Origin: Balanoglossus misakiensis
Taxonomy: Eukaryota > Animalia > Hemichordata
DNA length: 64,000 bases
Reading direction: 5' to 3'
Assembly: GCA_040954595.2 (NCBI GenBank)
Contig: CM082588.2
Coordinates: 3,494,513-3,558,512 of the forward strand
The translations under genes and the position numbers were made by a program. Under the pieces are notes generated by a model, which did no database searches, was not told the DNA's origin, and was given only the letters and a program-made list of their open reading frames with translations. Below are positions 3,719-55,860 of the stretch, piece after piece (positions within the stretch are counted from its first letter, which is position 1; each line of letters opens with the position of its first letter).

Positions 3719-6700
3719 TCATCCATCTGTTTTCTGTTTTTTCTTGTTTCTCTTTTGCCTTTTCTGTCTTTTCTTGTCATTATCACTCAGTTTCACTTCT
3801 CCACTTTCGCTGATTTGATGTCCCGCCTTAGGTTTGCTCCTCTCTTTGTTTTCCAGCGCTTCCTCTGCCGTGATTGGTGGAATGATGACGCCGAGTTTTG
3901 TGCTGACTTTGGGCTTGGTCAGTCTCTTGAAGGCTGATTCCGTGTTCCAAGTTCGTCCAACGGGCTGACGGATGCTACGCTCAAATTGTTCTGCACTCGT
4001 GTATGGAAAAGGCAACTCGTTCACCTGAGAAATGGAGCCATATGTATGGTGTAAGAGTCGAGAACTGAAATCAACAGGAAGTAAGATTCTATCACTTGAA
4101 AACTGATTTTATACTCCTTGTCTATAAGTTTCTATGACATCCAAGAAACTTACCTGGTGCATAGCAACTTTCTTATCTCGATCTTCATTGATGATGACAT
4201 GTGATAGAAGTCTGTCTTTTCTTGGAGCTTGGGGAGGCGGCTTGACAACAAATCTATAAAAGAATGACACCGAAATTCAGTTTTTGCTGAAACATAATTC
4301 ATTAGAGATACTCTGGTTGAACATAGAGTATGATTATTAAACATCTCAATGATGTAATTTTTGGTATGGACCAGATTTCTGTCATCACAAGGTATTTACA
4401 TGTCATTTGAAGTATAGTTTTAACACACAAAGAGACACTTACTTCTTTCTTTTTCTTTTGCTGGGTTGAACACCCGCCCCTCCCCATTCCCCCCACCCAG
4501 GCAGGGAGAGATCAACTTCCTTTGGCTTGTCCTGTTCCACTTTGTCAAGTTTTTCCCTGGAGAAATCTGCCACCACATCATCGTCGGCAAACGCCTGCTG
4601 GATGTTCAGTCTCTGGTCATCCTCTTCTTCAAGTTCGTCTTGAACGACTGCAAGGTCTGGGTTCTCCGAGGACAGAGTTTTGGCTTCAATGGTGAAAAAT
4701 TTAGAGGGATCCACATGGACCTCCTCTGAGACTGCCTTGTCATTTTCATGCAAATTAGTCCTATTTTCCTCCACAGAAGTCCTGTTCTCGTTTCTGATCT
4801 GAATCTCTTCATCATCAGAATCATCATCGTCATCATTTACTTCACGCCTGTGTTTAACCACTGGTTGCCATGGTTTTTTATCTTTCTTCTTCTCCTCTTT
4901 GACTTCCTCTGTCTCCTCTTCCTCCTCTGCACTTGACAGCTGTTCATCAAAGAAGCGGACTTTCCTTGTGGGCTTTGGACGTGACAGACTCGTCAATCTC
5001 TTCTCATCACCTGACTCTGCACTATCATCGCCATCATCATCTTTTGGTGCTCTTATTTCCGGCAGTCGCATAGCCACTACCTTGTCACTCTTCGGTTCTG
5101 TCTCACGCTCTTTTCCCAAGTTCGGTTGCCCGGCAAACCAGGGATTATTGACATCGCTGAGACTGGGTTTCAGAGACGCCATCTGCTCATCCTCGTCATT
5201 CTGTGCTTCGTCTTCGGAATCCGATTCGAGGGTGGCCGCGATCTTCGTGGTCAGACTTCTACTCTTTTCCAGTTGATCCGTGACAGCTTTCACACTCTGT
5301 AAGCCACAGATGCACAAATCATATCAGAAAATGCAATCAACACTGGACAACGTACTTGCAAGTTCTCACCAAGTGCTTCCAAGCACAGAACACACATGTT
5401 GTTTATGTTTCTCGCATTCATACTTTAAGCAATACACAACTTCAGAGGACAATAACATGTTCTTACATCTGGATTGTACTTTGCAAATCTTGACACACTC
5501 TTGGCCCACTTTCCAGTATTCTTGTGTTTCAACGTCAGTCGCTCCTGAAAATGAGAGAAAATGTGAATGTCTAATCGTACATTTAATTTCCAGTCCGATA
5601 CAAAATAAGGTCTCAACATGGAGGTTCCGTAGATGTCATAATACACGAATGCCCACCTCTGCTCTGGCCTTTTCAACTTTTTGGACATACTGTTGGTATG
5701 CCTCTGGATCTGTTCGCTCCATCTCTTCCAGTTGTCTCTTCTCTGTTCTGTCCTTGGCTTTCTTCTGAATTCGATGGTATCTATCGATAAACCGGTGAGA
5801 TGTGTTTAATACTGTCCTCCGCCAACCTGAGAGCTTACTGCACTGGACCTCACATCAAGAATGTAAGAGTTTTCCCTTAATATCTTGAGAGATATACAGT
5901 CGTTACCATGAAAATATTTTTACAAATCCTCTACTCACTTTTTACTTTTGATCTTCTTCTGTCTCCTACATTTACTTTCATAATATGACTGCAGTGCTCT
6001 CATCTTCTGCAATTCTTTGCGTCTTTCTCGAGCCTGCAAGATAATTGTATTACGGCACTTTATTTCAGAAGCACAGAAATGTGCTGTAATATAAAAGAAT
6101 CATTCAGGAAACAACTGCACCAAACATGGAACTATTTTCAGTGTCATTACCTCTTCTACGCTCATGGCTTTCAGAGCCTCTTCTTCTGCCTGGCTGAGTT
6201 CTTGGTTGGGCCTCTCGGCAAATTTACTGCCTTGCAGTACTCTGTAGATTTCTTCCTCCAAAGAATTACCAGGCTGTTGGGGGAAAACAATGGTTAATGG
6301 ACTCCTAAAACCAATATGAAGTGAAATATGAGACCTGTCAAATTGTAAAATTCACCTTGAAACCCTTGACAAACTCCTCAGTGGTGGCTGCTTCAAACTT
6401 CTCTTCATAAAGTGGAAAAGACAGATGTTCTGCTTTTTTGTTGGCCCCAACAATGGGATCCCATTTGGAGATCTTCTTGACTGTGGATTCGTACGCAATG
6501 CTTCTTTGAATCTGTAATAAGAGAAAATAAAATTCTCTTTCTTAAACAGCGCTTTGAACATGGTCAGGTCACTTCAACATGACTTTTATTACTTTTTTTC
6601 TTGAAATAAGAATTGATTATTATTCTATCTTTTCCCACTTACCCTGTCAGCCTGTACTTTTGGCAAAGGTGTTTTCACTTTTTTGTTCTTCTTTTGAATT

Positions 6701-7886
6701 TTCTGGAGCTGTTTCTTCAATTCACCATGGCTGGCCGTTGACTTGAGTGTGCCGAGCAACTCATGGATTTTGATTTTCTTTCCAGTAACTGAAGGAAACC
6801 AGAACCCACATGTGTTGTTTATATCTGAGTAAATTTTGGTGATAATTTCCACAATACTATCACATATATTTTTCTTACCTGCACTGGTGTTCAGATTGAA
6901 AACAGACACCTCTTGACTTGGCTCTGAGCGCTGACGCTTCCTGAAGGACAAACATAATTATGAACAACTTTTCATGAAACTGAAAAATTTAATATCACTG
7001 CCACAAAATGACAGAGACATGCCACCCTGTGAAATGTTACATTTGTTTTCTGCAGTTCATACGTAAGGTTTGTAGTTGTACTTAATTTAAACACTTTTTG
7101 ACCATGGGATCATTTTCAGATTTAAATTGGTGGATAAAAATGATGGCATCCTTACTTTCTCTTTCCATCAAGAGCACTGATGGCATTTATCAAATTCTTG
7201 TGTTTGAAATCTCTGTCTTCTTCCTGAAACATAAAAAATAGCAACACTCATGAAAAGTTTAAATAGATGATTTTCATCTCACTGCAAGATCTCCGGAGAC
7301 TTGCTTTATTACCATAGCAACGAGTTGCTAGCCAAGTAAAACACACTTTGTATGAAACTATATGGGCTATTGTGGTAAATGCTGCATACCTCATTTTCAC
7401 TCTCATCAGTGTCCTCTCTCGTTTCTTCAGCACTGACAATGTCATCATCATCACCACCATTATCAGAGTCCAGGTTGTTTGATAGTCCAGTACTGTGTAT
7501 GTTATGGATGAATTTACAATGTTAAAATTTGTAATATTACTTGATGCATTATCAATCGGTCCATACAAGACCAACGATCAACATTTACACTACAGCTACC
7601 ACGTTAGAGCTAGCATGGAGCTACCACATGGTTTGAGGTAGCTCCATAGACCACTGTGTACAGTTTACCGGTACACTATCATATGCACCTCTCTAACAGT
7701 AACAGCCAACCTCTGTGACACGATCGGAACAACTTACGCCCGTACAATTGGACATCCACTGAGTACATGGGTTAAGCTTGACGGCAACTATCATTCTGGT
7801 AGAGAAGCGAGCCAAAATGTGCTCAGAACACAAAGAACTGCCAGGATTTTCACCCCTTACCTCAAGAGCTGCAACGCACTAGCCAT
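3719..7886 (-). CDS. UTP14: U3 snoRNA-associated protein 14, about 13 coding exons
   Basis: Motifs RLTLKHKNTGKWAK, QQAFADDDVVADF, LPGWGEWGG and LPFPYTSAEQFERSIRQPVGRTWNT. First exon ATG at 7886 followed by a gtaag donor at 7860; GT-AG introns throughout. Confidence 0.93.
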
Positions 7887-11200: not shown

Positions 11201-14200
11201 GCGACCTGGCAACCTGGTGTAATCCACTGTAAAATAAGTTATAATATTAAATTTGCTTAACATCTCCCATCAGTTTGTGTCACCATCTCTAGTGACGAAG
11301 AGGAGGAAGAAGAGGAGGAGGAAGAGAAAGGGGAGGAGAGAGATAATGCAGCTGATGAATCACCAGTGGAATCTCGAATTGCTGATTCGTCGCAGGAAAG
11401 TGCAGCTGAGACGCCTAACAACATAGATTCCAGCTCCGAGCAGTCGGATGTTAACTTGAATGGTAAATGTTTGGGTGGCTTGACTGTTAGTGGGGTCTGT
11501 GTGACAGTGTGGTCACATGTAGGTGATTCTAACATTCAGTGAGACTGTTTGACTCTTTCACCCCAGTTCCCTTTAAAGAGGTCCAAATCACCATAGAAAA
11601 CTATGGATTTGGACCAAACCATAGTGGTGAAAGGGGTTAATCCACACATTATCTCTGTTTCTTGGCAGCAACAGGTGATGAATCCATCCATGACTCAGAT
11701 GTATCCAGCTCAACCTCTCAGTCATTGATGCCAAGAAAAATGAAAATGCGAGATCAAGTATGTCAAAGTTTTTTTTTCGTACCAAGAAATGACTTTTACA
11801 TAAGTCAGATTTGAGTTTTTAGGTCCCATGTGAAATTGGTCAAAACAATAACGCGAGAACTACTGGTCAGATTGCTTTGAAAATTGGTGTGCATTTTCTT
11901 TTTTGAGATCTTATCTTTACTTTCTATATTGTACGCATTCTTGAAGCATTTTTATTGCGTGTATTTTTTTACAGGATGGCAATGCACCTCAAGTCTCCGA
12001 TGTGTCCTCTACAGTGAAGAAAAGGCCGACTGAGAGGAAGAACTCTCCTGAATTCTTAAGTGCAATTATTGATATGAGAGGAATACGTATTGGGACATTA
12101 AAAGTCGAGTCCATTATGTGTCCTGTTGTCTTCACTCAGAATTATGTAGAGATGAAAATTGCAGGTAGGCAGACATCATGAATTTTTAGTTTTAAATCTG
12201 TGAAGAACAATGTTTGCTTTACAGACAGAAAGAAATGTAAAATCACCCTTGTACTGTTTCTTAGGGGATTTGTATAACTATTGACTGGTTGCATGATTAC
12301 CTTTCAGTGGATGAAGAGATGGTGGTAGACTTGAAGATAGACGCAAAACATATCACCAAGGTGGAAATCTTTGATGGTCGGCCTGCGAGCCTAATCAACC
12401 TGTTCACCACTCCTGGTGCTGGCTTAACGCTTCGGAACAAATTAAAAATGAAGAAAACAACTGGATGGTTCGACCCTGGCAGTATGAGTGAGTAATCTTT
12501 TGAAATCTATTTTTTTGTGTAAGTTTTTCCCTAAATAATGCATATAAGAAGTGATGTGATTTCCTCATTTTTTGTTTCAGTTGATGCCGAAAAGAGAATC
12601 ATCTTGATAGCTAAGACAGAACCTCTGGATCAGTTTGCTGTTAGAATGATCAATCGAATCTTCATGTATATAGCTGCGAGCAACGAAATCAGTAAGTGAT
12701 CAATTTGTTATGTTTATTATCATCGATTTCTGTAGGGACATAGCTGTATTTTGTGTATAACCCTATTGTCCTATCATCCAATGGCCACTTATGGTAAATA
12801 TTCTGGAAAAAGGAGAAAATCCCCTCTGTTTATGCGATCTGGGATGAAGTTCTATATGTAGTGTTTACTAGTCCTGCCTTTGACAACATACCATTGCTCT
12901 CCAATATGAGAAGGAACAATTTACCGAAACAATAAATTTACCATGTCGAGAACTATCTTGCTGCCACATATTGCTGCAAGGCCTAATATAAAGTACCATG
13001 ACTGATGTCTGCAGGTGGCATGATCGTGAAGTTGAACCAGGACAAAGCTAATGACATCCTGGTAGCCAATACCACTGCAAATCCCAAGAAAGGCGACTCG
13101 CTGCTCTACAAGAGAAGCGTAGTGCCCAGGGGCCGGGTACAGCCACGTCGAGCAGCGAGTCAGGTTGTCATGGAGACTGTAGAGTTAGATGAACCAACCA
13201 GGTTATTTTCAGGGCCAGTGGTTAAGTAAGTATACGTCTGCTAAATATTTCAACCTTGATCACAATATACATTTTTCTTTTTTACATTAATGGTGCATGT
13301 TGCGTGTGAATGTGATCAATAAAATCCTGGTCTATTTCATTGCAGATTATGTTCCTACCCGCCACCACCCAGTACTGGTGCCATAACTATCACAAATGAA
13401 GATTTGTTTTGTCTCAATGAGGAGGAGTTTCTCAATGATGTTATCATAGATTTTTACCTGAAGTAAGTTGCAGCATTCCCCAGTGTGTTGGTTGCAGATT
13501 TAATCACAGTTGACATGATTCAGAGTGTGTGCTGTATGTATGTATGTATGTATGTATGTATGTATGTATGTATGTATGTATGTATGTATGTATGTATGTA
13601 TGTATGTATGTATGTATGTATGTATGTATGTATGTATGTATGTATGTATGTATGTATGTATGTGTGTATGTATGTATGTATGTATGTATGTATGTATGTA
13701 TATGTGTGTGTGTGTGTGTGTGTGTCTGATTTGATTCCTAGGCTGGAAGTCAAAGGCTATGAATTGCAAAGACATTGGTCTTTGGAAGAAGCTATCATTT
13801 CTGCAATGCCAGTCATAATTCGAAATGCTTCCATTTGTGACTACTATAATGCAGGTACCTGGCAGACAACGTGCTGCACACAGAAGACAAAAAACGCACA
13901 CACATCTTCAGTTCTTTCTTCTACAAGAGACTGTCACAGCGACCCCAACGAGTCCATCAAGAGGATTCACAAAAACCCTTAGAGCACAGACGACACAAGC
14001 AAGTGAAAACCTGGACAAGACACGTTGATCTGTTTGAAAAAGATTTTATTATTGTGCCAATTAATGAATGGTAGGGAGAAGTTATCATTTATTGCAATTC
14101 ACCACTAATCCATCTACACGTCTGTCCAACGAACCATTCGTCCACCCTCCCGCCCATCCATCCACTCCTCCGTCCGTTAGTCATATTCTCGTTAGCTCCT

Positions 14201-16255
14201 CCAATTAAATTCCCACCTTTCATCTTTGACAGTGCCCACTGGTACTTGGCAATCATCTGTTTCCCAGGAATGGCTGTAGGTTCGGCTGATCAAGCCAACG
14301 ACAAAGGTGAGAGACCCTCTCCACTCATGGACAGAACTGAACAGTTTTGTATCACTTCTGTACAGCAAGGTCCTTCTGGATCAATACTGTTTGAACAGTG
14401 ATACGCTCTGCTTATCAGCGACATTGGCAATTTGAGATATTTTTGCTTGATGGAGAGTGATGCATGGTATATACAAGCTAGCCAGAATAGACTTTTTTGG
14501 GCATTCATATTAGTATTTAATTCTCATTTACAGAGAATGCTAATGGAGATGACAGTACTTCTGAGAATGGTGGTGATGGGCAATGCAGTACTGGCGAAGG
14601 CAAAACTGAAGGTGTCTCAAGAAAAAAAGTTGACAATGAAAGTACTACCAGTGACAGAAAAACTGACAAAGAGGAGCTAGTTAGCGATGGAGTTGAGGAG
14701 GAGAGTAATAGTAACCCTGGTTACAAAGACCTGAGTGATGGGAATGACGAGAGCAGTGATAGTGTCAGCAGCCATGGCAACATGAAAAATGGTGCGGGAG
14801 ATGAAGTCAGCAAGCTTGATAAGGATGAGGCAAATGACAGAGGAGATGATGATGGAAGGTTTGACTTGACGTCGAGTAGTGATGATGAGGGCCGACCGCC
14901 AATTAAGATAGCAAGAGTGGAGGTGAGTGGGATTGTCATCTCGCAGTTCTGCTATGTTTTCAGTATTTTTGTTTTGTGTATCTACTGAAGTTTCTTTTTC
15001 AAATCCCTGAAATATGATGAAATACCCAGTTTCCAGCTTGTTGTCCTTGCCCTGTCTATGTGTTCCACATTCTGGTTGAAGCTTATCCCCTACCAGTTCT
15101 TGTCGTCAAAACAATAAAAGACATCCACGCTTTATTTTCAGAGTCTCTCCGAGGGAATGATGGAGGACGGTTCCTCTGAGGACTCCGATGAAAGTGCCAT
15201 CAAGAAGAACGAGATGAGCAGTGATGCTGTGGAGGAAAAGACAGAAGATGAATCAGCAGAATCTGGCAAAGAAGGACCGAGCCAGGTGAAATTTAAACAG
15301 TGAGTATCATGGAAGACATGAGTATTTTCATATCAAGGGTATAAATGTTACTTATGGAATCTCACACCCTGAAGGACCTTGGATTAAATTTCTCATACGA
15401 GTAGGAGATATTCTCTCTCTCACATGTGCTGCAGGCATTTATGAAACATAAAACTATGACGATACTTTTCTTTTTTCAGGCCTTGCATTTTACTGTTCGA
15501 TTCATTACTTGGACCAATCCACAACAATGTGATCAAAACACTGAAAGAGTGAGTATGATCTTTATTACGTCTGTAGCCGTGTAGAACATGGCTGAAACCT
15601 ACAGAATGATGGCCGTCATATTGATTCAGAAATAATCATACATTTTCCATACTGTGGCTTAATTTTCACATGGACTGTGTACCTTTAACGGTATAGCAGC
15701 TGGGTTGTCTTCCAAATGGCAGCAAGAACCCAAAAAATGATTGAAGTGCCGGTATCATCAGAATGATTGATGCAGTATATTTTCATAATTGACTGTGTTT
15801 ATTATCGACCAGATACCTTGCCGTTGAATACGAGAGCCGGAAAGGCAAAGAGAAGAAGTTTATGAAGGAATGTATTCGTGGTTCGTCAGTCAAAGTCCCC
15901 CAGCAGAGTAATTACAGTGACTGTGGTGTCTTTCTGCTGCATTATGTAGAAATGTTCTTCAAGGTAAGCTATGTGGCCTCTCTGACCCAACTTCAGAATT
16001 GATGTAACACAATACAGAAAGCCGGGTTTTCCTGGTTGTCCCTTACCTCAAATGCTATACAGGAAAGTTTCTATTTTAACCATTCTGCTATTATTTGTCA
16101 CTTTCATATCACAGAAACCACCTGGGTGTTTCTCGCTGCCTATACAGACTTTGAAGAAGTGGTTTCCGGAAGATGACATTCCTCATAAGAGAGAGTACCT
16201 GATCAAGTTGATAACCACGCTACAAGAGGAACAAAGCAAGCAGAAGAAGTCTTGA
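8208..16255 (+). CDS. SENP6: Sentrin/SUMO-specific protease of the SENP6/7 (Ulp2) class, about 21 exons
   Basis: C48 domain motifs [68 protein letters not shown] and [19 protein letters not shown] long acidic insertion splits the catalytic domain, a SENP6/7 hallmark. ATG 8208 splices in frame to the exon at 8687. SENP6 versus SENP7 orthology is not resolved. Confidence 0.9.
11549..11640. mobile_element. Short piggyBac-like MITE (related copies at ~24629 and ~30979)
   Basis: Ends TTGACTCTTTCACC...GGTGAAAGGGGTTAA. The arm (T)TAACCCTTTCACCACCATGGTTTG recurs in introns at 24629 and 30979. Confidence 0.5.
13534..13725. repeat. (TATG)n microsatellite followed by (TG)n
   Basis: Directly visible tandem repeat in a SENP intron. 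Confidence 0.98.
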
Positions 16256-18014: not shown

Positions 18015-20125
18015 CTAAGAGATACTGTCTTGTTGAGACAGCAGCTCTTTCAAGAGATGATCCACATTCTCGTTGATCTTGATGTCCACGTCCTCTAACT
18101 CGGGAACTAAATGCATCAGCAGTTCACGGACCATGCCTCGAAGGTTGACGAGACTTGTAGTGTTGTCGGTTGCCCTGGCTTCGCTCTCCTCCAATCGCTC
18201 TGCGCTTTTCCGCAGTCGCTCCTCGCTCTCCCTCAGGCGATCTTCGCTCTCCTTCAACGCCTCCCGGGACTCTGTCAGGGAGGCCTGGTGCTCTTTCGCC
18301 TCGCATTCGCATTTCTGCAGGCGCTCCTTGCACGCCCCCAGACTGGCCTCCGCTTTGATCTTCTCGTGGCCGGCGCTCGCCAGCAGGCTCGCGTACTTCT
18401 GCTGCAGCGCGACCTTCTCCCGTTCGTGCTCCGTCTCGCGCTGCGCGAAGGACGTCTTCAGTTCAGCTTCCTGTTCCGCCAGGGACTCCTTCACCCTCTT
18501 CTCCTGCTCAGCCAACGTCTCCTGAACTTCTCTCTTCACTGTCTCAGTAATCTCCTTCAGTCTGCCCCTGTCCTCCTCCAGTTTCTTCACCTCCTCCTTG
18601 TGCCGGTGTTCTATTTGCGCCTTGTCGTGCAGCAGCTGTTTATTCTGCTGTTGAAGTTTGTCCACGTTGCTTTTGCTTTCGTCAAGCTCGCGTCGCAGAA
18701 CCTTGATTCTTCGGCTCATCTCCTCCACCGAATGCCCCGCCCCATCGGAATTGGATTTCACGGAATGCGCCGCCCCATCAGAATTGGATTTCACGGAATG
18801 TCCCGCCTCACCAGAATTGGATTTATCTCTGGAGCGAAGACTCTTGGCGATCGACGATTCACCCGGTTCTTCCAGAGGCCTCTTGGTGCACCTGCAAATG
18901 AAAACAAACTCCAGGTCAGTTGCTTCAGTTAACCCCCAACCTCTTGCTCTTTTTATATCGCGAAAATTTCCTGTTCGGTTTAACAGTAACCAACATGAAC
19001 ACATCATGCCCCAGCAACTCCCAGAAATGGCACGGCACTCGTACCTTGTCCTGTCAGTTGATGGTCCTTTCTTCTTGGACTTCTGCACATCGATTATTGC
19101 CTGTGAGATCATCATCAAGGCAGCATTGGCAGTCTCTGGATCCAAGCACTTGTATCCGCCTGAAATAAATGCAGGTCAAAGGTTATGAACATGGACATTT
19201 TCAAAAAAAGTGCAAGAGGTCACCAGAGGTTTTTATCTACTTCTTTTCATCTCAACATTCCCCCCGAGTATCTCACCATAATTTACTTACAAGCACTATT
19301 TGTCATCCTATAGGCGTCCACATGCTTCTTAAGTTGACGTTCCCTTTCCATGCTGTTCGGAAGCACCAGCAGGATTCTCTGTTCAGTCTTATCTGTGTTG
19401 AGTGAGAAAAAATAATAATGAATGCATTTTTGTGTGTGCATATTTTAACTGGGCAGTGGCAAGATGAATTTGAAGATATCAATACAGCAGGGCAGCCAGT
19501 TGACACAAGTTAGGGGAATCTGGCCATCTAGTCCATACTGATATGTTATCTAGGAAAAACAATGACCAACATACATTGTAAGACAGTAACCTGAAACAAA
19601 CCTGTGCTTGCTGGATCATACCAGCCAGTGTCACCTGTCTTGGCGACAGAGTCACACAGTTTCTGTATCTCTCTGGTTCTCTTTGCTGTTGTCTGCAGGA
19701 ACAGGATGTGCGATTTCCAGGACATGACAAAGCAGTGCTCGATCATTACCATGTCGATAGCCTTCAGCTTGATGCAGATACGCTCTGGGAAAATATGTAT
19801 GAAAAGAGGCGATATGACTAAGTGAAGTTGACTGTGTTCAATTGAGAATCACACATGGACAGGTTATCACAAGTCAAGTCGAGAAAGACGCCTGTGCAGG
19901 CTAAATCACACACGCCCTCCCAAAGAAAAAAGCCACCAAAGGACAAAACGTCTCACCTCCACTGTTTTTATGATTCATGTATAATTTCAAGTGTTCATCA
20001 GAGAAAGAAACACACATCTCCGGGGTCCGCTTGATTTCGATGGTGCCAATGCTGAACTTCTGAAGGACAATCATAGCCTTCTTGGCCTCAGCTTCAGTAC
20101 TCATTGTTGTACGTTTGGCGTTCAT
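18015..20125 (-). CDS. Uncharacterised 481-aa protein: SENP6/7-like pre-catalytic domain + coiled coil + MORC3/4-like C-terminal motif (putative chimeric gene)
   Basis: Exons 20125-19957, 19784-19602, 19392-19291, 19159-19045 and 18891-18015 splice via GT-AG into an uninterrupted 1446-nt ORF. N-half GWYDPAST^DKTEQRILLV resembles the neighbouring SENP. C-end LRGMVRELLMHLVPEL...VDHLLKELL resembles the neighbouring MORC. Confidence 0.82.
18726..18824 (-). repeat. Coding 33-nt tandem repeat x3 (KSNSxxAxHSV)
   Basis: KSNSGEAGHSV / KSNSDGAAHSV / KSNSDGAGHSV, visible at both DNA and protein level. Confidence 0.9.
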
Positions 20126-20694
20126 TGTTTCTGATCTGCACATGACAAACAACATGTGATTAGCATTGACAGTTACGAGAGTTAGAACATGTGGACCAGT
20201 GCAGATTGTTGTGATTGTCGAGTTTGAAGTTTGACTTGAGTCGAGACAGTTGCAGATCGCCAAAAGGGCTGATAAAAGTTTTACAAAACGTATATACTTA
20301 CGAAAAAAAGGAGCATGGGACGCAATTTATTCCTGGCACTGCACAGAAAGTTCACTCACTCACGATCAGGCGTGTTTTTGTCTACTTTTCAGCCAGACGC
20401 GACGCCAACCATTTAACACTTTTCGTAGAGGGAGGTCAGAGGTCACGCATGGTTTGAACGCATGCGCTGAAGGAATTTGTGTGCTGAAGTAATAAATGGA
20501 TCCATGCGGAAATAATGTTTATTTGTGGGCAATGGCGAGGAGAAAGCCTAAGTTTGAAAGGGCAAAGCAGAGAAGAGCATGTATAATATCTCGATTTTCT
20601 GTAATTTTAGGCTTTTCTCCTTGAATTCCTTTAAACTAAAAACCAGAATGTCGATTGCATCATGGGAAAAATTATCCCGGTCATATTAGACAAA
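20126..20694. promoter_or_regulatory. Putative bidirectional promoter chimera/MORC
   Basis: About 570 bp between divergent ATGs. It includes a probable non-coding first exon of the minus gene (gtaagt donor at 20301, acceptor at ~20136) and a YY1-like AAAATGGCGG at the MORC start. Confidence 0.55.
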
Positions 20695-23600
20695 ATGGCG
20701 GACTTAGAGAATGGCGTGCGCAAAAGCGCGGTAAGTACAAGATTCACTCCATTTTATTGGTGAAAACTACACGAATACGTCAGCCCAGCCCGAATATATG
20801 AACAGACTACATTATAAATGCATTGCTCTGTTTTCAGATGTCGCCAAAGTATTTGCACACCAACTCGACGTCGCATACTTGGCCGTTCTCTGCCATGGCT
20901 GAACTGATCGGTGAGTATGTTTACGTTGTTATGTGTTCATTTCATGTCATCTTTGAAATCTACAAATGACATAAAACCGACACGGGTCACGCCATGATCG
21001 CGGGGAAAGTCGAGTTTTTCTTTTTGTGTCTATCGACCCTATCGACAGACTGATATTCCGCGCCGCCTGACTTCTACATTACATGTGCAGAGGAGGGGAT
21101 TCCCCAGCCTCGTTTCTGGTGTACTTGTACGCGCAATGCATACATTGATTGGCCAAGGCCTTGCGCTCTGGTCTAACCTTAGCTAATGATCTTCAGACAG
21201 TGCCATTTAAACCCCTTGCATATTGACTCTCATTTATACTTATGCACCCTTATTTTCCCTGATCTGTCTTCAGATAATGCCTATGACCCTGATGTTGCTG
21301 CCAAGACCCTGTGGATTGATATCAAATACACTGGACAAGAACTGTGTATGACATTCACAGATGATGGAAACGGTATGAAGGAAGAAAAACTACACAAAAT
21401 GCTCAGGTAATGTGTAAGGAACACACATTTCTGTGGTTGTTTTGTCCTCACTGCATCTGTTGCATTGTTAAGCATGCAAAAGTGATTTCTGGTAGTCTTT
21501 CATTGTTAAAAGTTGAAATTATTGTCTATTATTTCAAAGCGTACAAATCTTTTGTTTCACTTTCAGCTTTGGGTTTTGTGAGAAAGTGGAAATCAACGGG
21601 CACATGCCGGTTGGTCACTACGGGAACGGCTTCAAAAGTGGCAGCATGAGGCTGGGCAAAGATGCCATTGTGTTCACCAAACAGGACAAGGCACTGACCG
21701 TGGGCTTCCTGTCGCAGACATACCTGAGTGCAGTCCACGCGCAGACGATCATGGTGCCAATTGTCGCATGGCACAGCATCACTCATATCCTTTTGTCACT
21801 CATGGTTTACGATTCTTGTGATGTGACGCGTGTGATTTCCCCATTTGAGATTTAATTTTAAAATATCAAAATTTCTGCCTGAATGCTTATACTGTAAAAC
21901 ACTTTATTTTCACGAGTTGAAATTTTCGCGACACCGAGAGAGGCTACTGTTTCGCCAGTATTAATTTTCACGTTCTCTTATTTCATTCATTGCATCTTTA
22001 TCTTAAAAAAAATTACGCAACTTTTTATTTTCACGCTATTTTGGCTCTCGCGTATTTCGCGAAAATCTATTGCTCGCGAAAATAAAGTGTTTTACAGTAG
22101 TCTGAATGATTCATTACCGAGGTGCAATCAACCCTTAACAATTAATTACATGAACGACTGAACACAATTGACAGCAATGCTAGTTTGGCGGCCATCACCA
22201 AATTTTCCCTGTTCAGAACTGAAAAAGACCTGCTTGAGGAGTTCAACGCAATCAATGGACCTCATGGTACAAGGATCATCATCAGTAAACTCAGGACGTA
22301 AGTATGCAGTGCTGGAGCAGAAACCATTGAAAGTGAATCTGATAATTGGGGTACATGTATTAGTATTACAGTAACTGATTCCATAACTTCTCTTCCAGCG
22401 ATTCAACAGGAAGATCAGAGTTCGATTTTGTGATCGACAAACACGACATCCTGATCCCCGATGATAATAGCACCACCAGCACTTCAGGAGAATATCGGGG
22501 AAAAAGTAAATACAAGAAGCAGGACAGACAAGACGATGTCCCGGAATGCGATTATTCGCTCCGGGTGAGTCGGGTAGTAACATTAAAGGGAAAAAGTCGC
22601 CAACTTTTGACAATATTTAGAAAAAGTTATGCAGGTCGATTTTTTGAAAGATGATTACAAATTGCCGTTGAAAGGATAAATGCATCCCATGTCACATGTT
22701 CTTCTCTCATACAGCTTTGTTGTTTTATGCAATTTGCAGGCATACTGCAGTATACTGTATCTCAGACCCAAAATGAAGATTGTGTTGCGGGGCAAGAAAG
22801 TCAAGACCAGACTCGTAACCAAGAGTCTTCGTCAAACAGAAACAGATGTCTATAAACCACAACTTGACAACGTATCCTTTTACTTTGGTGTCAGTGTCAC
22901 ATAAATTGAACTGTTGATTCTCTATGACCAGTGAGAATTATCTCCTAATCACCCTGTGTCCAAACAAGGAAAAGGAGGTCTGTTTTTAATGTGATTCTTT
23001 GACATGGCTTATCAAAAAGCAGTCAAGTGTAGCTTCAGAACCCCCATACTCCTGTCAGCTCTGGGATCGTATAGATTTTCTTTAACTTTCTGACAGTTTG
23101 TGAAACCTGTCAAGATAACCATTGGGTTTAACACCACCAAGAACCACTACGGTGTGATGATGTATCACAGAAACCGACTGATCAAAGCATATGAGAGAGT
23201 TGGTTATCAGACTAAGGTAAGAGAAAACATCAGTCCCTCCAGTAAGTTTACCTTGTCACATGTGCTTCACTTGACATTGTGCAGTTTCTATACGAGTTAC
23301 ACTGCATTGTTCTCCCTGAACAAGGAAACAGGGGCATGGCACCCTCTTGTACATTCAATCTCTCCCCCCCCCCCATTCGTTGAATCTCAATCTGAATGTT
23401 GCTTCTCTCTCTGCTTTTCAGGCGAACGAGATGGGCGTAGGAGTGGTTGGAGTCATCGAGTGCAATTACTTGCAACCAACTCACAACAAACAAGATTTTG
23501 ACTACACTAAGCAGTACAGGTCAGATTATTTTTTTTTTCACTTGAGCTTTTCTTGCTTTGTGCCAAGATTTGCCCATTGCCGTTCTTTTTACACTGCATT

Positions 23601-25265
23601 TTGTTTCTGTCTGTGCAAACACAGGTCATGCATACATGCATTAGGCACCAAGCTGAACGACTACTGGCACGAGAAGACTGGTCTACAGCGAATGGAGTCG
23701 ACCGCCACTACCAGCACCCCCCAGGCTAGAGTTCCCGTCTCAAATATACCCGACCAGACGTGGGTGCAGTGCGACCTATGTCTGAAATGGAGAAAGCTGG
23801 CGGATATACACGACCCTGAGACTCTGCCAGACAAATGGTATTGCAACATGAACACAGACCCAGCGTTTAGTTCTTGCCAAGTATCGCAAGAACCGGTGGA
23901 TTCTGACGATGGAGATGCGAAACCCAGTTACGATAAAAAGGTCAAGAGACAAATGGAGCGTGAGAAGATAGAGAAGGCTCGAAAATTAGCAGAAGAGAAA
24001 CGTAACCAAAAATATGAGCAAGAGAAAAAACTGAGGGAGATGGAAAATAAACTCAAGAGATCACAAGCACAGTTACAACTCAAAGAAAAGGAAATCCAAC
24101 AAAGGCAAAAAGTGATACAGGTATAGCGTCATGTGACATTTAATACTCGGTCCACTGGTCCCACTTTGGTCCCATTGGATTGCTGCAAACAAAAATATCT
24201 AAGAAACAATTTGCATATTTTAGATCTGAACTATGTGTAGTGATGGCGTTTTCTTTCTTTGTAGCATGTGAGGTTGACACCGGTGCAGAATGGAGTCGTC
24301 GTATCCAGAGCAAGTCTGGGATATCACGAAAAAGTTCAGCTGCAGACCCAGAAAATGCTGACACAGCTGGAAGAGCAGAGACTCGAACTGGAAAGACAAA
24401 AAGAATGCATGGTTGCACAACAGGTCAGTCGACATTTACAGCAAACATCTCTCCAAAGCCAAAACGAAATTTATTGACAGAGGATGAAACATTTTTTACA
24501 GTAATGCAGAAAATAAATAATCCTATTTTTTATCCTACCCCTGCAGGCACGGGTTAACGTCAACGCACCAACAGCTAGTACATCTGTAACAGTCAACAGA
24601 CCATCGACAAGGTAAGTTGCGTACAACCTTAACTCTTTCACCACCATGGTTTGGTCTACCTCCATTGTTGTCAATAGCAATGCTGGGGGTTCAGCAACAT
24701 TCGACAGTGACAAGAATGAAATTCTTATGAAATACTGAATTGGCATTTCTTCTTGAAAATCTTGCCAACAGTTTATTTGATTTAAAAGTCAAAATAATGT
24801 TATTATTGTCCATTTATCAGTAAGGATTTTATTTCTCCTCTTTTCAGCAAAGCAGCAGATCTGAAACAGATCCTGAAAAGATCGTCACTGTCGAGTGTTG
24901 CTACAGCCCCTCCATTGAAACAGATAAAACAAGATCCTGATGCAGATGTGATCGTGTTGGACGGGCCGAAAGAAACCGTGCCACCCAGGAGGAAATGCAC
25001 AAACGTGAACTGTACCCAAACGGAACCAGTTGAAATCCGCACAAACGTCCCGGGCAGCGGGGGTCTGCGACGGCTCTCGGCGCTGGAACAGCATCAGGTG
25101 CTGCTGCAGCGCACCAGGGAGCTGGGGGATTTGCGGCGCAATGTGTCGCAGCTGCTGCAGGTGCTGGTGCCCGAACTGAACTTGCCTGAGAACGATATCG
25201 ACATTGAGAGCAGCGAGGTGGACGAACTCTTGAAACAGGTGTTGCTGGCCAACAAGGAGAGTTAG
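20695..25265 (+). CDS. MORC3: MORC family CW-type zinc finger ATPase (MORC3/4 type), 13 exons, about 750 aa
   Basis: GHKL motifs [34 protein letters not shown] and [15 protein letters not shown]; S5 region [12 protein letters not shown] and [10 protein letters not shown]; CW finger [15 protein letters not shown]...WYC; C-terminal [16 protein letters not shown]...VDELLKQV. Confidence 0.93.
21785..22149 (+). other. U12-type AT-AC intron in MORC
   Basis: Donor ATATCCTTT, branch CCTTAAC at 22133-22139, terminal AC. Splicing restores WHSITH^[15 protein letters not shown] in frame. Confidence 0.92.
21892..22097. mobile_element. MITE with TA target-site duplication (Tc1/mariner-like)
   Basis: TA|CTGTAAAACACTTTATTTTC(A)CGAG ... 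CTCG(C)GAAAATAAAGTGTTTTACAG|TA near-perfect terminal inverted repeats. A related end lies at ~47790-47820. Confidence 0.85.
22872..23096 (+). other. U12-type GT-AG intron in MORC
   Basis: Donor GTATCCTTT; branch TTCTTTAAC about 10 nt before the AG; in-frame join YKPQLDN^[11 protein letters not shown]. Confidence 0.88.
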
Positions 25266-26752: not shown

Positions 26753-29700
26753 ATGTGGACCACATGGTTTCAGAGTTCTAGGCTTCTTCTCGTATTTGGT
26801 TTGATTTGGTTGGCATTTCTAAATTGCACAGAGGCACTCACACCTTGTGAACAGGCAGCGCAGGACCAAGGTGAGTATTGATTACAATTTCTGTTTTTAT
26901 GCTGAAATGTTCTGTAAAGAACTTTTGACAGAATTCTTCGTAGCTGCAAATTTTCACTAGCAGTAATCCCTGTCTACTGAGTGAAAGAACAAAATAAAAC
27001 GATGAACATACATAAAGGGCTTTCGTAATTAATATCTTAATAGTCAGGGTACAGAAAATGTCCTATTTTCGAATAGTAAAAGCTTAAACGTGTTCACCAT
27101 GGTTTGGTCAAAGTCTACGATAAAAGTTGGACCTCACAATTAACACGGGGAAACATGGGTAAGATTTAACTTGGTTTTAATTTCCTTCATGAAAATATGT
27201 CCACATGAAAGTGTCACACTCTTGGAGGTAGATTTGATATCCAAGAAATTTTTCTGAAAATATTTCAATACAACAGTCAACAGATATTGCATTTCTTTCT
27301 TTGTTCTTTTTATTTTTCCTCATCTAGGATGGGCTGATGTTGCCGAGTTGTGTAATTACAACGGGGACTGTATCGACGATGGCGTTAATTATCGCTGTGA
27401 CTGCTACCCGGGCAAGATCGGCGACCACTGCGAGAGTGACGACCCGTTCCCCTGCGTGACGTACGGCGATCCCTGCCTCAATGGCGGTACCTGTTACAAC
27501 ACACCCCCTCTGTGCTCCTACTCGCTGAGCTGTCCCACCTCGCAACCGCTGTTCTACGTCTGCTTCTGTATGCCGGACTTCACAGGTTTCCATTGCGAGG
27601 TCAACCTGAATAGTGACGGGTGTGATTCGTCTCCTTGTCAGAATGGAGGCACCTGCACAACAGATCCTGTACATCCAGAACTCTACACTTGCTCCTGTGT
27701 TACTGGCTTCACTGGTGAGTATTAAGTTATTTTTTCAGATATTTTTGGTCAAAATAGTCATAAAGTTGTCCTATACATTCCTGGTTCTCACTATATAAGA
27801 GTTGGCTGTAGACTTGGAAAGCATTTCATTTTTTATGTTTATTTTGTTAATATTTCATTCAAGTGAAAGCAAATGTCTTTCTAAAGAGAAGAAAAATCAA
27901 CAGAAATATTCTAGTATCTTTTTTCATACCTCATTGGCCATATTCCTGTTTCAAATATTTTCATTGTGTTTTACAGCACTCCTATATTTTTGTACAGTTT
28001 CACCTCCTTTCAAAAGCAAAAACTAAACTGTCTAAATTTGTAAGCAATGTTATTCTATATTGCAGAATTTAGCTAACACGTCACATCTGCATCAGCAAGG
28101 TTAAAGGGATTTGTGACCTCGGAGGTCAGGCTAAACAAACAATAAACAATGCTGCCTTACCAACAAAAGCAACAAACAAATACAAACACAATGAGAATCG
28201 GTAGCTTGATCGCCCCAGCTCTTCACAGTGAAACAATAAAACAACAAAGTTTAAGATCAAATGTCAAAAAAATAACAATCATGGCTAGCTTGCTTGATAC
28301 GCACCAATTAGAAACATTGGTTCCACTTTTCATGCTGCACATTCTCAAGCAGCTACAGACGTCTACTTTTCCTTCTACAATAATTGTGATCTCTCGCCAG
28401 GCATAAACTGTCAAACAGACATCTGTAATCCAAACCCATGTCAGAACAGCGGCAATTGTTCAGCCAGTGGATCTGGTTACACCTGTGGTTGTCAAACAGT
28501 AAGTAGAATTCCCCCACACTCAAGTCAGAGACTCCTGGACCAGTAGAATTTCCACCACGCAGAGCTGATCTCAGTTTGATTGTACTTGCAGTATCTCAAC
28601 TGCAAGAAATACCAGTAGCTTTCTTTTACCGGTATATGACATACGGTTTTGTTTGCGTGAGACACCACTCCAAATTTATCAACCTTTTTTTCTAAGGTGG
28701 GTTTCGGGTGAGATATAGGTTAATGTGCAAAAAGTGGGGTTGTGGTGTGTTTCTGGTGGTCCTGAAGTGCACTGAATACACTGGAATTTTTGTTAAGGGC
28801 CTCTCACATTAAAAATCTCAACTTTTCCTTTCTAGGGGTACATTGGCGACAACTGTCAAATTCCTGAAAGCAACTGCCAACCAGGGTATTGTCTGAATGG
28901 TGCTGTGTGCGAGCCGACAGAAACCGGGTACATATGCCACTGTTTGGACGGATATGACGGTGCCAACTGTGAAAACGATATCCGGGAAGAGTGCAGCTCC
29001 TCTCCGTGCCATTCCGGAACCTGTGTGGATCAGGTGGGATATTTCCAGTGTGTCTGTCCGCCCATGTACAATGGAATCCAGTGTGACGTGTTTGACGCGA
29101 CGTTTCCAGGGGGAATCGGGGTGAACGTCACGAGAGCGCCGAGTACAGTTGTCACGACAACGCCAAGTACAGTTGCTACGACAGCGCCAAGTACAGTTGC
29201 CACGACAGCGCCAAGTACAGTTGCCACGTCAACGCCGACTACCACACCTCTGGAAAGTACTAGCAGATCAGCACAAAGTACTACTGGTAGCAGACAAGGC
29301 CAAAGTACTACCTATGTGACATCCAATGCAGTTGTACCGACCCAGGGAACATGTCAAGTTGTTGGCTGCACGACGAAACGAGGAGATGGTATTTGTGATG
29401 TAAGAATTGTATTATTTTATTTTTGTTAAAAAATGACATAATCATCAAAGTTCACAAAGTCAAGAATTTAATGGGTGTGTATAAGTGCCCTTTGTTTATC
29501 ACTGGAATTTTTTTTTTTTACTTTTGCAGGAAGAATGTAACACATACGAGTGTTCTTGGGACGGCATGGATTGCTCGCTTGGTCTGTTGCCATGGCAAAA
29601 CTGCACAGTAACCACGGAGAACTGCTGGGATGTCTTTGAGGACGGTGTGTGTAACGAAGACTGTAATGTGGCCATGTGTTTGTATGACGGCTTTGATTGT

Positions 29701-32700
29701 GTCGCACCAGTTGGATCATGCAGGTAATGTGCAGGGATGTATAAAATGGCTTTTATAACTTATAAGTCAAGGGAGCTTTTTGTACATAGTAGTATTAGTA
29801 CTTTGTAAGCTCTATGAGGAATCATCACATATTTGGCCATGCTCGTTGCAAAGCTTGAGTTATAATATCTGCTTGTCTGACAAACAGCAACTGCATGTCT
29901 CTGAATCAGAAAGCAACAGTGCATTAGTGCAAATTGGCCAAGTACACCCAACCACACCATTTGCATTTTATCTTTAATAAGAATTAAATATTGTATATTT
30001 TTGGACCTTTCTGTGCAGGTACAATACATACTGCAATGATTTTTACCACGACGGCAACTGCGATCAAGGCTGCGACTCGGCGGAATGTGGCTGGGATGGC
30101 ATGGACTGTGTTGACTACCCTCCACGCTACGCCAAGGGGACCATCGTCATGACGGTGCTGGTGGAGCCCCAACTGATCCGCGACAACGCCCAGGCATTCC
30201 TTCGCGAGGTCAGCCACATCATGCACACGACTGTGGAGTTTGTGAGAGACGCCAACGGAAATTACAAAATCGAGCACTGGAGTGAAGATGAGGGAACTAC
30301 TGCTGATGGACTGAGTCAGGGCAAACGGAGTGTTGGTGATGATGGCCACTACAGAATGAGAAGGGATACTTTGACTGGGTAAGTACTGCAGGTGTTAATT
30401 TTGTCATTGGTGCCCAAACTCTGTAAGCTTCTACAGAACTTCTATTATAATAAAAATAAAAAAATTCTGTAGGCTATATAGAACTCCCTTTTTATTTTCC
30501 CATAGGGTATTTCCAGTTAGAAGACACAAATGATAAATAAGATTAAAGGTATACAGTCACCTCCAATTTACATCCGCCCATATATGGCTGAAATGGCGTA
30601 TTTGAGCGTTCAAAAAGAACATATGGCGGCGCTCTTTTTTCGCGTGTGCCACCCACTGAAAATCTGTGATTGGCTAGATCTCAGTTTACCATGGTAACTA
30701 TAGCTAATTTTCCATAGGTGACTGTATACCTTTAATATACATGTATTATACATAGGATGTACAAGTTTTACCATTCTCATCTGCATGGAATTCAATACAA
30801 AATATATCCTTTCCTAGCTCTAAAGTTTACCTGAGGGTTGACAACAGGAGGTGCTATGCGACAAATGGAGATTGTTTCGAAAGCGCTGACCAGGCCGCGT
30901 CACTCTTTGCTGCAAAGTCTTCAAAGGGGTCACTGGACGTGCAGTTTCCCATCCACAGTATTGATGGTGAGTCTTTTGTTTACCCTTTCACCACCATGGT
31001 TTGATCCAGATCCATTGTTTTCTGGGGTAAAGCTGGATCTCTACAGAAGGAAATGGGGGTGGCCACGTTGTATTTAAATAATAAAACTGTGTTTTGTGTA
31101 TTAGTTGAAGAGGACACACCCACTGAAGAAACACCAGTCAGCAGTCTGGTGTGGATTATAGGAACAGTCGTTGTGGTCGTCATTGTCCTGCCCATACTGG
31201 GCGTTCTCGTGTCAGCATCTAGGAGGAGAAAGGCACGCGGAAAGCTCTGGTTTCCGGAAAACTTCACAAGCCATGCTAAGAGAAGAAAAGCTGACGGCTG
31301 CCCTGAGAGTAAAAACACCCCAAGTGCGAATGATTCCTCGAGTATAAGGTTGGTGCTAATGTGTATAGCCACAAAATGTTATCAATATTCTGAGAGAAAG
31401 TGTCATTCTGCACAGTGAAAAGGGTCACTGAATTGCCTGTTTTCTTCACAGGCAACTTGAAAGGATTCTCAGTGGCTCTGCAATGGGCTCTGATGCTCAC
31501 CAGGAGAACAGTCAGAAGTCCACAACTGAACCATCTGAAAATGCCAGGAAGAGATCTCGAATCAAGGTAAAAACTATGCATATATTTAACATGCTGTTTC
31601 TGCAGAGAATTGACCCCTATTGCCAGAATGCTATAGTCCAACACCATGGAATGGTTGAACCAATACACTGGAAAATGGGGATGACCGGACTAAAAAATGT
31701 TGTCTATACCACCACAGTTTCAGGAACCACTCAGTCCGATCGTAAGCTCTCCCAGTGACGTGGAAGCAGTTCTGAGAAGTGATGACGACACAGAGAAAGC
31801 AACATTGTCCAAGCCGAACTACGGTGCCCACATTCCAGCATCTTTTGCACTCACACCGCCCACAGATGACGGTGAAGATGATGTGGCCAATTTGGACCTC
31901 GACATGGAAGGACCAGGTCAGAACTAACATACTGTACTTTTGACTCATGCTTTGTTACATTTATTTTACTATGGATAAAGCATATAGCCCATCTATGAAA
32001 ATTTAACCACTTTACACACAGAATGTAATTATTGCAAAAAGGACTAAAGTTTTTTTTTATTTCTTTCATTACAGGCGGTGTAACACCATTGATGTTAGCA
32101 GCGCAGAGTGGTGAAAATGATCCAAGAGATGTTGGATCAAGATCTGCTGCGCTGGTCACTGATCTGTTGGCACAGGGTGCATGTCCATTGGTTGCTACAA
32201 AGAGAACTGGTCAGCCATTTTTTTTTCTCATTCTTTAACTGTGAAATGACTCCAAGTCATTGAGTCTTTATGTACATGCATATGAACCTTGGAAATCTGT
32301 AAGCTGGCATCTGATTGCATGGTCTCCTTGTTTGTGATTTTTTGTAGGCGAGACACCATTGCACATGGCTGCTCGTTATTCCCGTGCCGACGCTGCCAAG
32401 TCGTTGCTCAGAAACGGCGCTGACCCCAATGCTCAGGACTTGACTGGAAGGACTCCCCTACACGCTGCTGTTGCTGCTGATGCAAATGGGGTCTTCCAGG
32501 TATTATACGTCCCTCCTACTTACAAATGATAATCACCATAAGTGACATGTTATCAAAAGAAATATATGTCTGGCAACTGGACAATCTTCGGTACATCAGT
32601 TCCGTAAATTCTTAAACCTGAATGTGTTGATTTTAATGCCAAGGTTTTCAAAATTGTAATATTTCATCCAGATCATAAGTTGACACACGAAAATGTCCAA

Positions 32701-34484
32701 AAACCTTTCTGAGATTTTCCTTCAACTGCATGAGCAATTGATTTTACAAGAGAAGGTAAAATATGCATAAATTCCAGATCTTGTTGAGAAATCGTGCCAC
32801 AAATCTAGATGTGAAGACATATGACGGGACAACAGCATTGATTCTATCAGCACGTCTGGGGATAGAAAACACTGTTGAAGAGCTTATCGATACAGGTGCA
32901 GATTGCAATGCTGTCGATAATTATGGTATGTAAAGGAATTCTTCTGTCAAATCACTTTGTCTAGATCTATTGAATTCATGTCATCTACATCTTGTGAGCC
33001 GCTGGCATTAAACTTGGAACTAAGACCATTTAATGTAACGTACAAAGTACATTTGTCACTATTTTCAGGGAAGTCAGCACTTCACTGGGCAGCTGCTGTC
33101 AATAATATTGAAGCCACTGAAATTCTACTGAAGCGTGGCGCAAGCAAGGATATACAAGATGATAGGGTAATTTATCTTCATATTTGCTTAACATTTATTC
33201 AGTTGGTGGTAATTATGAATAGCAAATCTTTCCATAAATAAGCTACGTGTTAAAACACTGGATTGTTCTGCCTGGCATACTTTGCCATTGTCTAAAACAG
33301 TAATCTGTGTAAAAATGTATACAGTTGAGTAAACTGAAAATTCATATTTTTTCATTTTGTAGGAGGAGACAGCCTTGTTTCTAGCAGCAAGAGAAGGAAG
33401 CTTTGAAAGTGCTAAGATTCTTTTGGATCACTACGCAAACCGTGAGCTGCGTGACCACATGGACCAGTCCCCCTGTGACATTGCAAAGGATAGACTGCAT
33501 CTTGACATTGTCAAGCTGTTGGAAGAATACAATATTGGTGAGAGTCCACCAGCACTGCTGGCTCTGGCTGCCAATGTCCGAGCTGTGGATCAGTACCAAG
33601 CCGCTGGAAGCTTCATGGCCGCAAATATCAGTATTGGTGGGGGTAAGAAACGGAAGGTGTCGAAGTCTAAAGTTGGATTCGAGAGCCAGGCAAGTCCGCT
33701 TTGTGAGGAGTTGCCGCTCGATGAACTTGTCGTTCATGTGTTTGGGGCTCATCACAGTGAGATGGGTTTCCAGTCCGATGCAACTGGTTTTGTTCAGAGA
33801 GGGGCGATGCCTATGGAGTGCCAATCACATGTACCCCTTGGTGGGCACTTTCAGATGGACGCTGCCCACCCACTGTCCGCAGAGAATTCCCTCAGCTCAC
33901 CGCCGATGTTTCCAGACGGTTCTCCCGTGGGAGAAATGTACGGCGGCCATATCTTCTGTCACTCAACAGGCCATGGTATTCCAGTCAGCGATAATCATCC
34001 ACAGTCTACTATCGCTGATCATTATGACGACGGTAACCACGCATCATCCCTGCCGCACCCAGCATCCAGCTGCAACCAGAATCAGCTGACAGGGGTTTTC
34101 AACAGCAGCGGTCTGGACCTGGATATCGGGGTAACGGCACCAGTGTCTGTACCATCTGAGTGGATGAGGGCCGTCAACCCGCCCGCCTTCAGTGATCCCA
34201 GAAACACCCCGCCAAACCCTCACTACGACGCTTACAACGAAACGAGCCCACATTCTCTTCACTCTATGAGTCCCAACACTAGTGTTAATTCCCCAGCCAG
34301 TGCAGCGACAGGCTCTCCGTACAGCAACTTTGCATCGTCTCCGTCTCAGATCGCAGCGTTCCAAGCTCTCACACAAGGCAACCACCACACTGCACAACCC
34401 ACCATTACGAATCCACAGAGTGATTACTATGACAACTGTGATAATTCCTGCATGTTTCAGAACTACTCTGTTGCATGTACTTAA
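26753..34484 (+). CDS. NOTCH: Short Notch-family receptor: signal peptide, 6 EGF, Thr-rich stalk, 3 LNR, NOD/NODP, TM, RAM, ankyrin repeats, Ser/Pro-rich tail (about 1,350 aa, about 15 exons)
   Basis: Signal exon [23 protein letters not shown]; LNR motifs WDGMDC/YDGFDC; furin-type RMRR; TM followed by [13 protein letters not shown]; ANK motifs [31 protein letters not shown] and [17 protein letters not shown]. Confidence 0.92.
29137..29240 (+). repeat. Coding 24-nt tandem repeat (APSTVATT x~4) forming a mucin-like stalk
   Basis: gccaagtacagttgccacgacagc units inside the Notch exon, between EGF6 and LNR-A. Confidence 0.9.
30547..30731. mobile_element. MITE with TTAA target-site duplication (Kolobok-like)
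   Basis: TTAA|AGGTATACAGTCACCT ... AGGTGACTGTATACCT|TTAA perfect 16-bp terminal inverted repeats in a Notch intron. Confidence 0.85.

Positions 34485-50370: not shown

Positions 50371-55860
<5,490 letters not shown>

Follow-up and report, generated by a model that had tools for sequence, protein, structure and literature searches.

Gene order and structure of the chimeric gene

A stretch of 64,000 nucleotides (nt) from the hemichordate Balanoglossus misakiensis (contig CM082588.2, positions 3,494,513 to 3,558,512), animal DNA to which we refer as the window and in which all positions are counted, carries a gene whose protein joins a SENP6/7-like domain to a MORC-like tail. This gene, here called the chimera, lies on the reverse strand between a SENP6/7 gene and a MORC gene, both encoded on the forward strand:

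11975-16255, + strand: SENP6/7 gene as modelled, on one side of the chimera
11975-13225, + strand: SENP6/7 exons for the pre-catalytic PH-like domain, likely parent of the N-terminal half of the chimera
20125-18015, - strand: chimeric gene, between SENP6/7 and MORC
20126-20694, no strand: head-to-head gap between the ATG of the chimera and the ATG of MORC, with a splice acceptor before base 20135
20695-25265, + strand: MORC gene, 13 exons, 753 amino acids (aa)
24848-25265, + strand: last exon of the MORC3/4-type gene, likely parent of both ends of chimera exon 5; tail match at 25113-25244

The SENP region of the window is identical to a SENP6-like protein of the acorn worm Ptychodera flava at 122 of 208 residues. 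The MORC neighbour can be assigned to the MORC3/4 type. PDB entries of MORC3 and MORC4 match its CW exon with E values of 1e-21 to 1e-22, MORC2 entries do so more weakly (about 5e-8), and Pfam reports zf-CW.

Five coding exons with GT-AG splice sites give the chimera a stop-free frame of 481 aa with intron phases 1, 1, 1 and 2:

19957-20125, - strand: exon 1, 169 nt, phase 1; codes for the initial strands of the PH-like domain; matches the orthologues and SENP exon 11975-12164
19602-19784, - strand: exon 2, 183 nt, phase 1; codes for the core of that domain, with a WYDP motif at its end
19291-19392, - strand: exon 3, 102 nt, phase 1; adds to the domain its final strand and main helix
19045-19159, - strand: exon 4, 115 nt, phase 2; completes the SENP-like part with a closing helix, after which comes the fusion junction
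18015-18891, - strand: exon 5, 877 nt including the stop; linker, coiled coil and MORC-like tail

No named Pfam domain was found in any of these exons. Intron 4 (18892-19044, - strand) is 153 nt long, open and in frame. Its retention would make possible a form of 532 aa; as the main form this was rejected, given that the spliced form fits both orthologues described below better (712 vs 656 and 428 vs 384).

The 5' end of the chimera faces the MORC start 570 bases away. Candidate splice donors were seen in the gap at 20363, 20359 and 20301, and the observed/expected CpG ratio at positions 20100-21000 is 0.94-1.21, compared to a window median of 0.58. The CpG-richer head-to-head stretch and the splice acceptor just before the ATG point to a shared promoter, and the gap probably holds a 5' untranslated exon of the chimera.

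Two further observations were made in this region. The word GCGCATGCG at 20459-20467 in the gap, of which the window has no other copy (0.04 expected; seen in 4 of 100 shuffles), resembles an NRF1 site. Within the MORC gene, two introns (21785-22149 and 22872-23096, + strand), one AT-AC and the other GT-AG, have donors of the minor-spliceosome type, likely U12; reading the former as AT-AC brings back the open frame.

Orthologues in two acorn-worm families

A profile of the exon-2 pair (65 columns) was searched, free of word seeding, against 1,835,955,588 representative proteins. Of the seven hits, four were dropped as repeat artefacts, one was the SENP6-like protein of P. flava (XP_070568066), and two were proteins with the architecture of the chimera, namely XP_070568053/054 of P. 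flava (436 aa) and XP_077977713 of Glandiceps talaboti (476 aa). The latter two align end to end with the window protein; the P. flava protein is identical to it at 173 of 431 residues and the G. talaboti protein at 133 of 442. Both carry the N-terminal domain, the coiled coil and the tail. Since they had been found by exon 2 only, the tail common to them confirms independently that the two halves form one gene. In RefSeq one is labelled 'putative leucine-rich repeat' and the other 'uncharacterized'. Conversely, a profile made from the orthologues alone found exon 2 with an E value of 1.3e-21 among 1645 six-frame segments of the window. Three word-seeded protein searches gave no match; as they overlooked the orthologues found later, these are weak nulls.

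P. flava belongs to the Ptychoderidae and G. talaboti to the Spengelidae. P. flava and Schizocardium, likewise a spengelid, last shared an ancestor more than 370 million years ago (PMC11175523). The chimera is conserved across these two families, which split that long ago. Only one SENP6/7 protein, that of P. flava, was among the hits of the deep search and none came from other animals; because the SENP6/7 proteins of other animals were missed, an absence of the family from other animals cannot be concluded from it. The accessions of the P. flava orthologue and SENP6-like protein are 12 apart, and the longest contig recorded for them has one length, which suggests that the two genes are linked. 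For gene order in relatives, the supplements of genome papers gave no match.

If the halves were separate genes, or a decaying pseudogene joined on paper, the low scores of two donors, 3.9 for intron 2 and 3.7 for intron 3 in a training range of 3.0-12.0, and the open intron 4 would be accounted for. Yet two RefSeq proteins of other species hold both halves in one chain, and the window gene has an intact frame and a codon bias (GC content at third codon positions 0.65, as against 0.37-0.45 GC in introns); we consider such an artefact extremely improbable. In a neutral simulation with indels at 0.05 substitutions per site, 53 of 1000 copies remained stop-free, and none of 1000 was free of both stops and frameshifts. 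Together with the orthologues, the intact frame speaks for long-term retention. The original prediction, made from the window alone, had described an intact single gene kept by selection despite high divergence. The 481-aa frame and the two-species orthologues bear out the first part, and the long conservation in two families agrees with the second.

Homology of the N-terminal half to SENP6/7

When compared with the pre-catalytic exons of the neighbouring SENP gene, the N-terminal half reached a local score of 67, which none of 2000 shuffles equalled (z 7.1). The last 51 aa scored 74 against the whole MORC protein, again with 0 of 2000 shuffles as high (z 8.7). Swapped pairs, run as controls, gave no signal (118 of 500 and 274 of 500 shuffles; the N-terminal half shows no match to MORC). 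At database scale these pairwise matches alone are weak (phmmer, 11.4 and 13.8 bits, E about 1e4 for 1.84e9 proteins), and outside support for both homologies comes from the orthologues and from structure. At the DNA level no similarity to either neighbour is left (best blastn E value 0.17). When the chimera protein was searched in the window by tblastn, the best non-self match was the MORC tail, with 49% over 45 columns and an E value of 0.002.

For the N-terminal half, a profile built from the two orthologues gave 22.5 bits against the window SENP, above all of 1000 shuffles; among single six-frame segments, the SENP exons reached E values of only 0.48 and 4.1. An hhalign comparison of the family profile with the pair of SENPs gave a probability of 94% and an E value of 1e-7 over 153 columns. 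The Atlas model of the P. flava protein (residues 5-175) had SENP6 as its top structure match, with a template modelling (TM) score of 0.80 over 162 aligned residues, and five of the first six rows of the Atlas search with this domain were Ulp/SENP proteases from chordates, fungi, flatworms and plants. Row 7 was an unnamed cluster of 404-aa proteins (58 members, no taxa; TM score 0.66) without a protease family, which could be another stand-alone PH-like family.

Our own model of the N-terminal half (predicted local distance difference test 73, predicted TM score 0.66) gave six Foldseek matches at E values up to 0.001, led by SPT16 and SYCP2. In comparison with the PDB its best match was SYCP2 (Z 9.6, root-mean-square deviation 2.7, 102 residues aligned), followed by SSRP1/Pob3 (FACT) and Rtt106, all of which are PH-like. 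The N-terminal half is homologous to the SENP6/7 pre-catalytic domain, and a PH-like fold is predicted for it, as the original prediction had proposed on both counts.

In a tree of five rows, two of them SENPs and none an outgroup, the family was set apart from the SENPs with support of 100/100, by a branch of about 3.3 changes per column. With two SENP and one MORC sequences compared, the tree cannot place the halves. Several further searches were made: Atlas feature searches with exon 2 and with the tail returned nothing usable, the PDB, queried by sequence with exon pair, tail and family alignments, returned chance or generic coiled-coil matches only, and a metagenome scan with a SENP exon yielded, from 214 candidate stretches, one locus, a short intron-bearing contig of no use.

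Exon 5 and the MORC-like tail

Three elements were distinguished in exon 5:

18837-18884, - strand: basic motif of the form KR-x(10-12)-K-x-[LI]-[KR] at residues 193-208; putative nuclear localisation signal
18156-18788, - strand: coiled coil predicted for about residues 225-435, the block at 346-375 being conserved (heptad scan and conservation)
18039-18161, - strand: MORC-like acidic helical tail, residues 434-474 (tblastn, profiles)

With a tail profile built from the two orthologues, the MORC last exon was the best non-self segment among 1645 (E 0.0014) and beat 1000 of 1000 shuffles. Nine tail positions are invariant in the three family members and MORC, including a proline and an Asp-Ile pair that lie outside the helical pattern, and all four tails are acidic (net charge -5 to -8). 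The tail is among the best-kept parts of the protein, with 13 of 42 positions identical in all three members. Together with the pairwise result, the profile match upholds the predicted homology of the C-terminal end to the tail of the neighbouring MORC.

The basic motif occurs once in each of the three family members and once in MORC, and is absent from the two SENPs. In the window, the last exon of the chimera and that of MORC each have it just past their phase-2 acceptor (4 of 20000 shuffles, for a pattern defined post hoc). In this way exon 5 echoes the MORC last exon at its start and at its end.

In the conserved block of the coiled coil, 9 of 30 positions are identical in all three members; Pfam found sub-threshold coiled-coil families only. 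A MORC origin of the long coiled coil found no support in a test, since the profiles of coiled coil, block and linker were equalled by 483, 186 and 176 of 1000 local shuffles, respectively. The term 'dimerisation motif', which the original prediction had applied to the C-terminal end, was too firm: a tail of about 45 residues is common to the chimera and MORC, while the long coiled coil is without detectable MORC homology.

No match to the tail was found in the PDB, full-length MORC2 entries included. A model of the tail consisted of two helices (predicted TM score 0.40) and was uninformative, with no Foldseek match and only generic helices in VIA-align (best Z 6.6). In two reports on human MORC2, the last 82 residues are described as needed for dimers (PMC6892150), residues 901-975 as sufficient for dimers, and residues 1004-1032, the last 29, as binding a disordered region so that condensates form (PMC13189624). 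MORC C-termini mediate dimers and condensates, according to the same reports and to two further papers (PMC5651269, PMC8627505). The shared tail would correspond by position alone to the human MORC2 segments termed CC3 and IDR-binding domain (IDR, intrinsically disordered region).

A different account holds that a truncated SENP6/7 duplicate acquired an unrelated coiled-coil exon and that the MORC-like tail is a convergent amphipathic helix. It gains from the shortness of the tail match, from its modest profile-profile probability and from the lack of any MORC structure or PDB sequence matching the tail. It is very unlikely in view of the shuffle results (0 of 2000 and 0 of 1000), the same terminal position in the same kind of phase-2 last exon, the invariant proline and Asp-Ile pair, and the second common motif at the start of the exon.

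Exon structure and origin

The original prediction had stressed the parallel between the exons of the chimera and those of SENP, and this stood in part. The SENP exons concerned likewise have intron phases 1, 1, 1 and 2, and the internal exons are of similar size (183 and 102 nt, against 180 and 111 nt in SENP); a match in phase by itself is a 1-in-3 event. Only intron 2 lies in the identical alignment column (116 vs 116), introns 1 and 3 being 6 and 3 columns away from those of SENP, within gapped loops. Further, exon 4 measures 115 nt compared to 211 nt in SENP, i.e. 96 nt less, so that the phase-2 fusion junction is not at the position of the SENP intron. The last exon of MORC (24848-25265) is also preceded by a phase-2 intron.

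Each half is homologous to a different neighbour, within one conserved reading frame, as is characteristic of a chimeric gene. To judge from sequence comparison, it probably originated by a local inverted duplication of the two neighbours. SENP and MORC stand in tandem on one strand, in the order of the chimera halves. A copy reaching from the SENP PH exons to the MORC last exon would have been inserted, inverted, between its parents with loss of its middle, and would have come to stand head to head with MORC and to share the promoter of the latter. The last exon would have kept the MORC basic motif at its start and the MORC tail at its end, and gained the long coiled coil between them. An inverted copy that lost its middle would explain the content, the order and the position of the chimera. 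None of the findings that could have overturned the original prediction was obtained: both homologies held, the halves were found in one chain, and both orthologues found were from acorn worms.

Alternatively, the domain combination may predate acorn worms and belong to a wider, fast-evolving family, its neighbourhood being a relic or a coincidence. Such a history is compatible with a sole deep search that used a 65-column profile and had one SENP6/7 among seven hits, with the long branch between family and SENPs and with the vanished DNA similarity. It is improbable, however, given that both orthologues are from acorn worms, that the Atlas rows nearest the N-terminal domain are mostly long proteases apart from the unnamed 404-aa cluster, and that the chimera sits between both parents with its halves in parental order.

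Comparison with known proteins

Peptidase_C48 was detected by Pfam in the SENP6-like protein of P. flava (E 8e-31) and is absent from both orthologues and from the chimera exons; similarly, GHKL ATPase, S5 and CW zinc finger had no Pfam match in orthologues or chimera exons. The lack of Peptidase_C48 means that the chimera is not a SENP, and the lack of GHKL ATPase, S5 and CW that it is not a MORC. With no catalytic domain in exons or orthologues, the description 'catalytically empty' in the original prediction was apt.

SENP6 and SENP7 are SUMO chain proteases of the Ulp2 type, with a pre-catalytic PH-like domain that bears the Atlas label PF31014 (in plants PH_ULP, PF25352). The chimera resembles them in fold, in homology over about 155 residues, in intron phases and in one intron at an identical position. 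Unlike them it has neither a protease domain nor a long N-terminal region, its PH-like domain coming first and being followed by the coiled coil, and identity is 21-26%. With the GHKL ATPases MORC3 and MORC4 it has in common the terminal acidic helical motif of 45 residues and the basic motif that starts a phase-2 last exon, a likeness measured against the window MORC alone. Unlike these, it lacks ATPase, S5, CW finger and SUMO-interacting motif (SIM), and its coiled coil is not detectably related.

A literature search found no account of the chimera, its accessions or a SENP-MORC chimera, most subscription papers being outside its coverage; architecture and family appear to be undescribed, although chimeric genes made from neighbours are of a known kind. 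New chimeric genes formed by duplication of adjacent genes are known from Drosophila and primates. The chimera is like these in that its halves come from two neighbours, are joined at an intron, are kept by selection and diverge faster than a parent. It differs from them in its age of more than 370 million years, if the date of the family split holds, in being inverted between both parents, and in consisting solely of non-catalytic pieces of two nuclear enzymes of the SUMO pathway.

In its possible role the chimera may be analogous to Arabidopsis DMS3, an ATPase-less SMC-hinge partner of AtMORC6 and thus an enzyme-less protein of coiled-coil type that acts with a MORC (PMC5651269). DMS3 differs in sequence and origin, which are unrelated, and its binding to MORC has been shown, whereas that of the chimera is a proposal.

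Other genes in the window

Upstream of SENP, a single-exon gene of the translin family (2428-3387, - strand) and a Utp14 gene (3700-7500, - strand) are useful synteny markers. A short Notch-like receptor at 26800-34500 (+ strand) has few EGF repeats, a Thr/Ser-rich repeat stalk, LNR, NOD and NODP domains, a likely membrane helix and ankyrin repeats, and looks like a reduced Notch paralogue. At 36100-45100 (- strand) lies a multi-exon helicase gene with Helicase_C, the exons of which read like HFM1/Mer3. An acidic open frame at 50887-51765 (- strand), rich in KR and RR pairs and unmatched in Pfam, is probably part of a neuropeptide precursor gene at about 50900-56100.

Proposed role of the chimera

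The features described above suggest, tentatively and at somewhat less than even probability, an enzyme-less nuclear adaptor that is made together with MORC and acts as a homodimer, with its tails in MORC assemblies and its heads on a docking site of SENP6/7. The coiled coil would form a parallel homodimer, so that both MORC-type tails lie at one end and both PH-like heads at the opposite one. By way of its tails the homodimer would enter MORC dimers or condensates, and its heads would sit on a chromatin or protein site used by SENP6/7 without cleaving SUMO. MORC would thereby be tethered at the SENP6/7 site and the protease kept out, such that SUMO chains are preserved at MORC-silenced loci. 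SENP6 itself is thought to be tethered by N-terminal SIMs, and the paper concerned makes no mention of MORC3 in its main text (PMC6726658). The full version, in which a dedicated regulator of MORC silencing evolved more than 370 million years ago from both enzymes, shares the MORC promoter, inserts its tails into MORC clamps or condensates, blocks SENP6/7 docking with its heads and so protects SUMO chains, is unlikely.

A number of observations weigh against these interpretations of origin and role. Between the window species and P. flava, the PH-like domain changed about 2.5 times as much as that of SENP (1.53 vs 0.61 changes per column), and such a fast-changed domain may no longer keep the binding to SENP partners; what the SENP6/7 PH-like domain binds was not found in the literature searched, nor was a dedicated study. 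Our own model of the N-terminal half had SENP rows in its input alignment, for which reason its fold is not independent of the SENP homology, unlike that of the Atlas model. From a tree of five rows one cannot tell which SENP served as donor. At 41 columns the tail match is short, hhalign giving it a probability of 38% and, against one sequence, an E value of 3.3e-4; the orthologue tails are identical to the window MORC tail at only 14 of 58 and 15 of 57 positions. The lack of detectable MORC homology in the coiled coil weakens the idea of a coiled-coil heterodimer. Finally, the SIM-like segment (648-654) and the SUMO site (641) of the MORC last exon are missing from the chimera.

A protein of the same chimeric origin might instead be a self-dimerising adaptor with new partners, rather than with MORC or SENP targets. 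The fast divergence of the PH-like domain, the long coiled coil with a conserved block of its own and the loss of SIM and SUMO site all fit such a change. On the other hand, the tail has been well kept, with nine positions invariant even in MORC, and the chimera remains head to head with MORC; we regard new partners as rather unlikely, though not remote.

The chimera represents a clean and very old case of a gene that was probably assembled from two neighbours and still lies between them. As far as seen it is confined to one small animal group, and its function is inferred. In it, the SENP6/7 PH-like domain and the MORC tail, both poorly understood, are parted from their enzymes; in human MORC2 the role of the tail is split between dimerisation and condensate formation. 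If the proposed role is true, the SENP6/7 PH-like domain would for the first time be seen as a natural stand-alone copy, and the chimera would bring to light what this domain binds.
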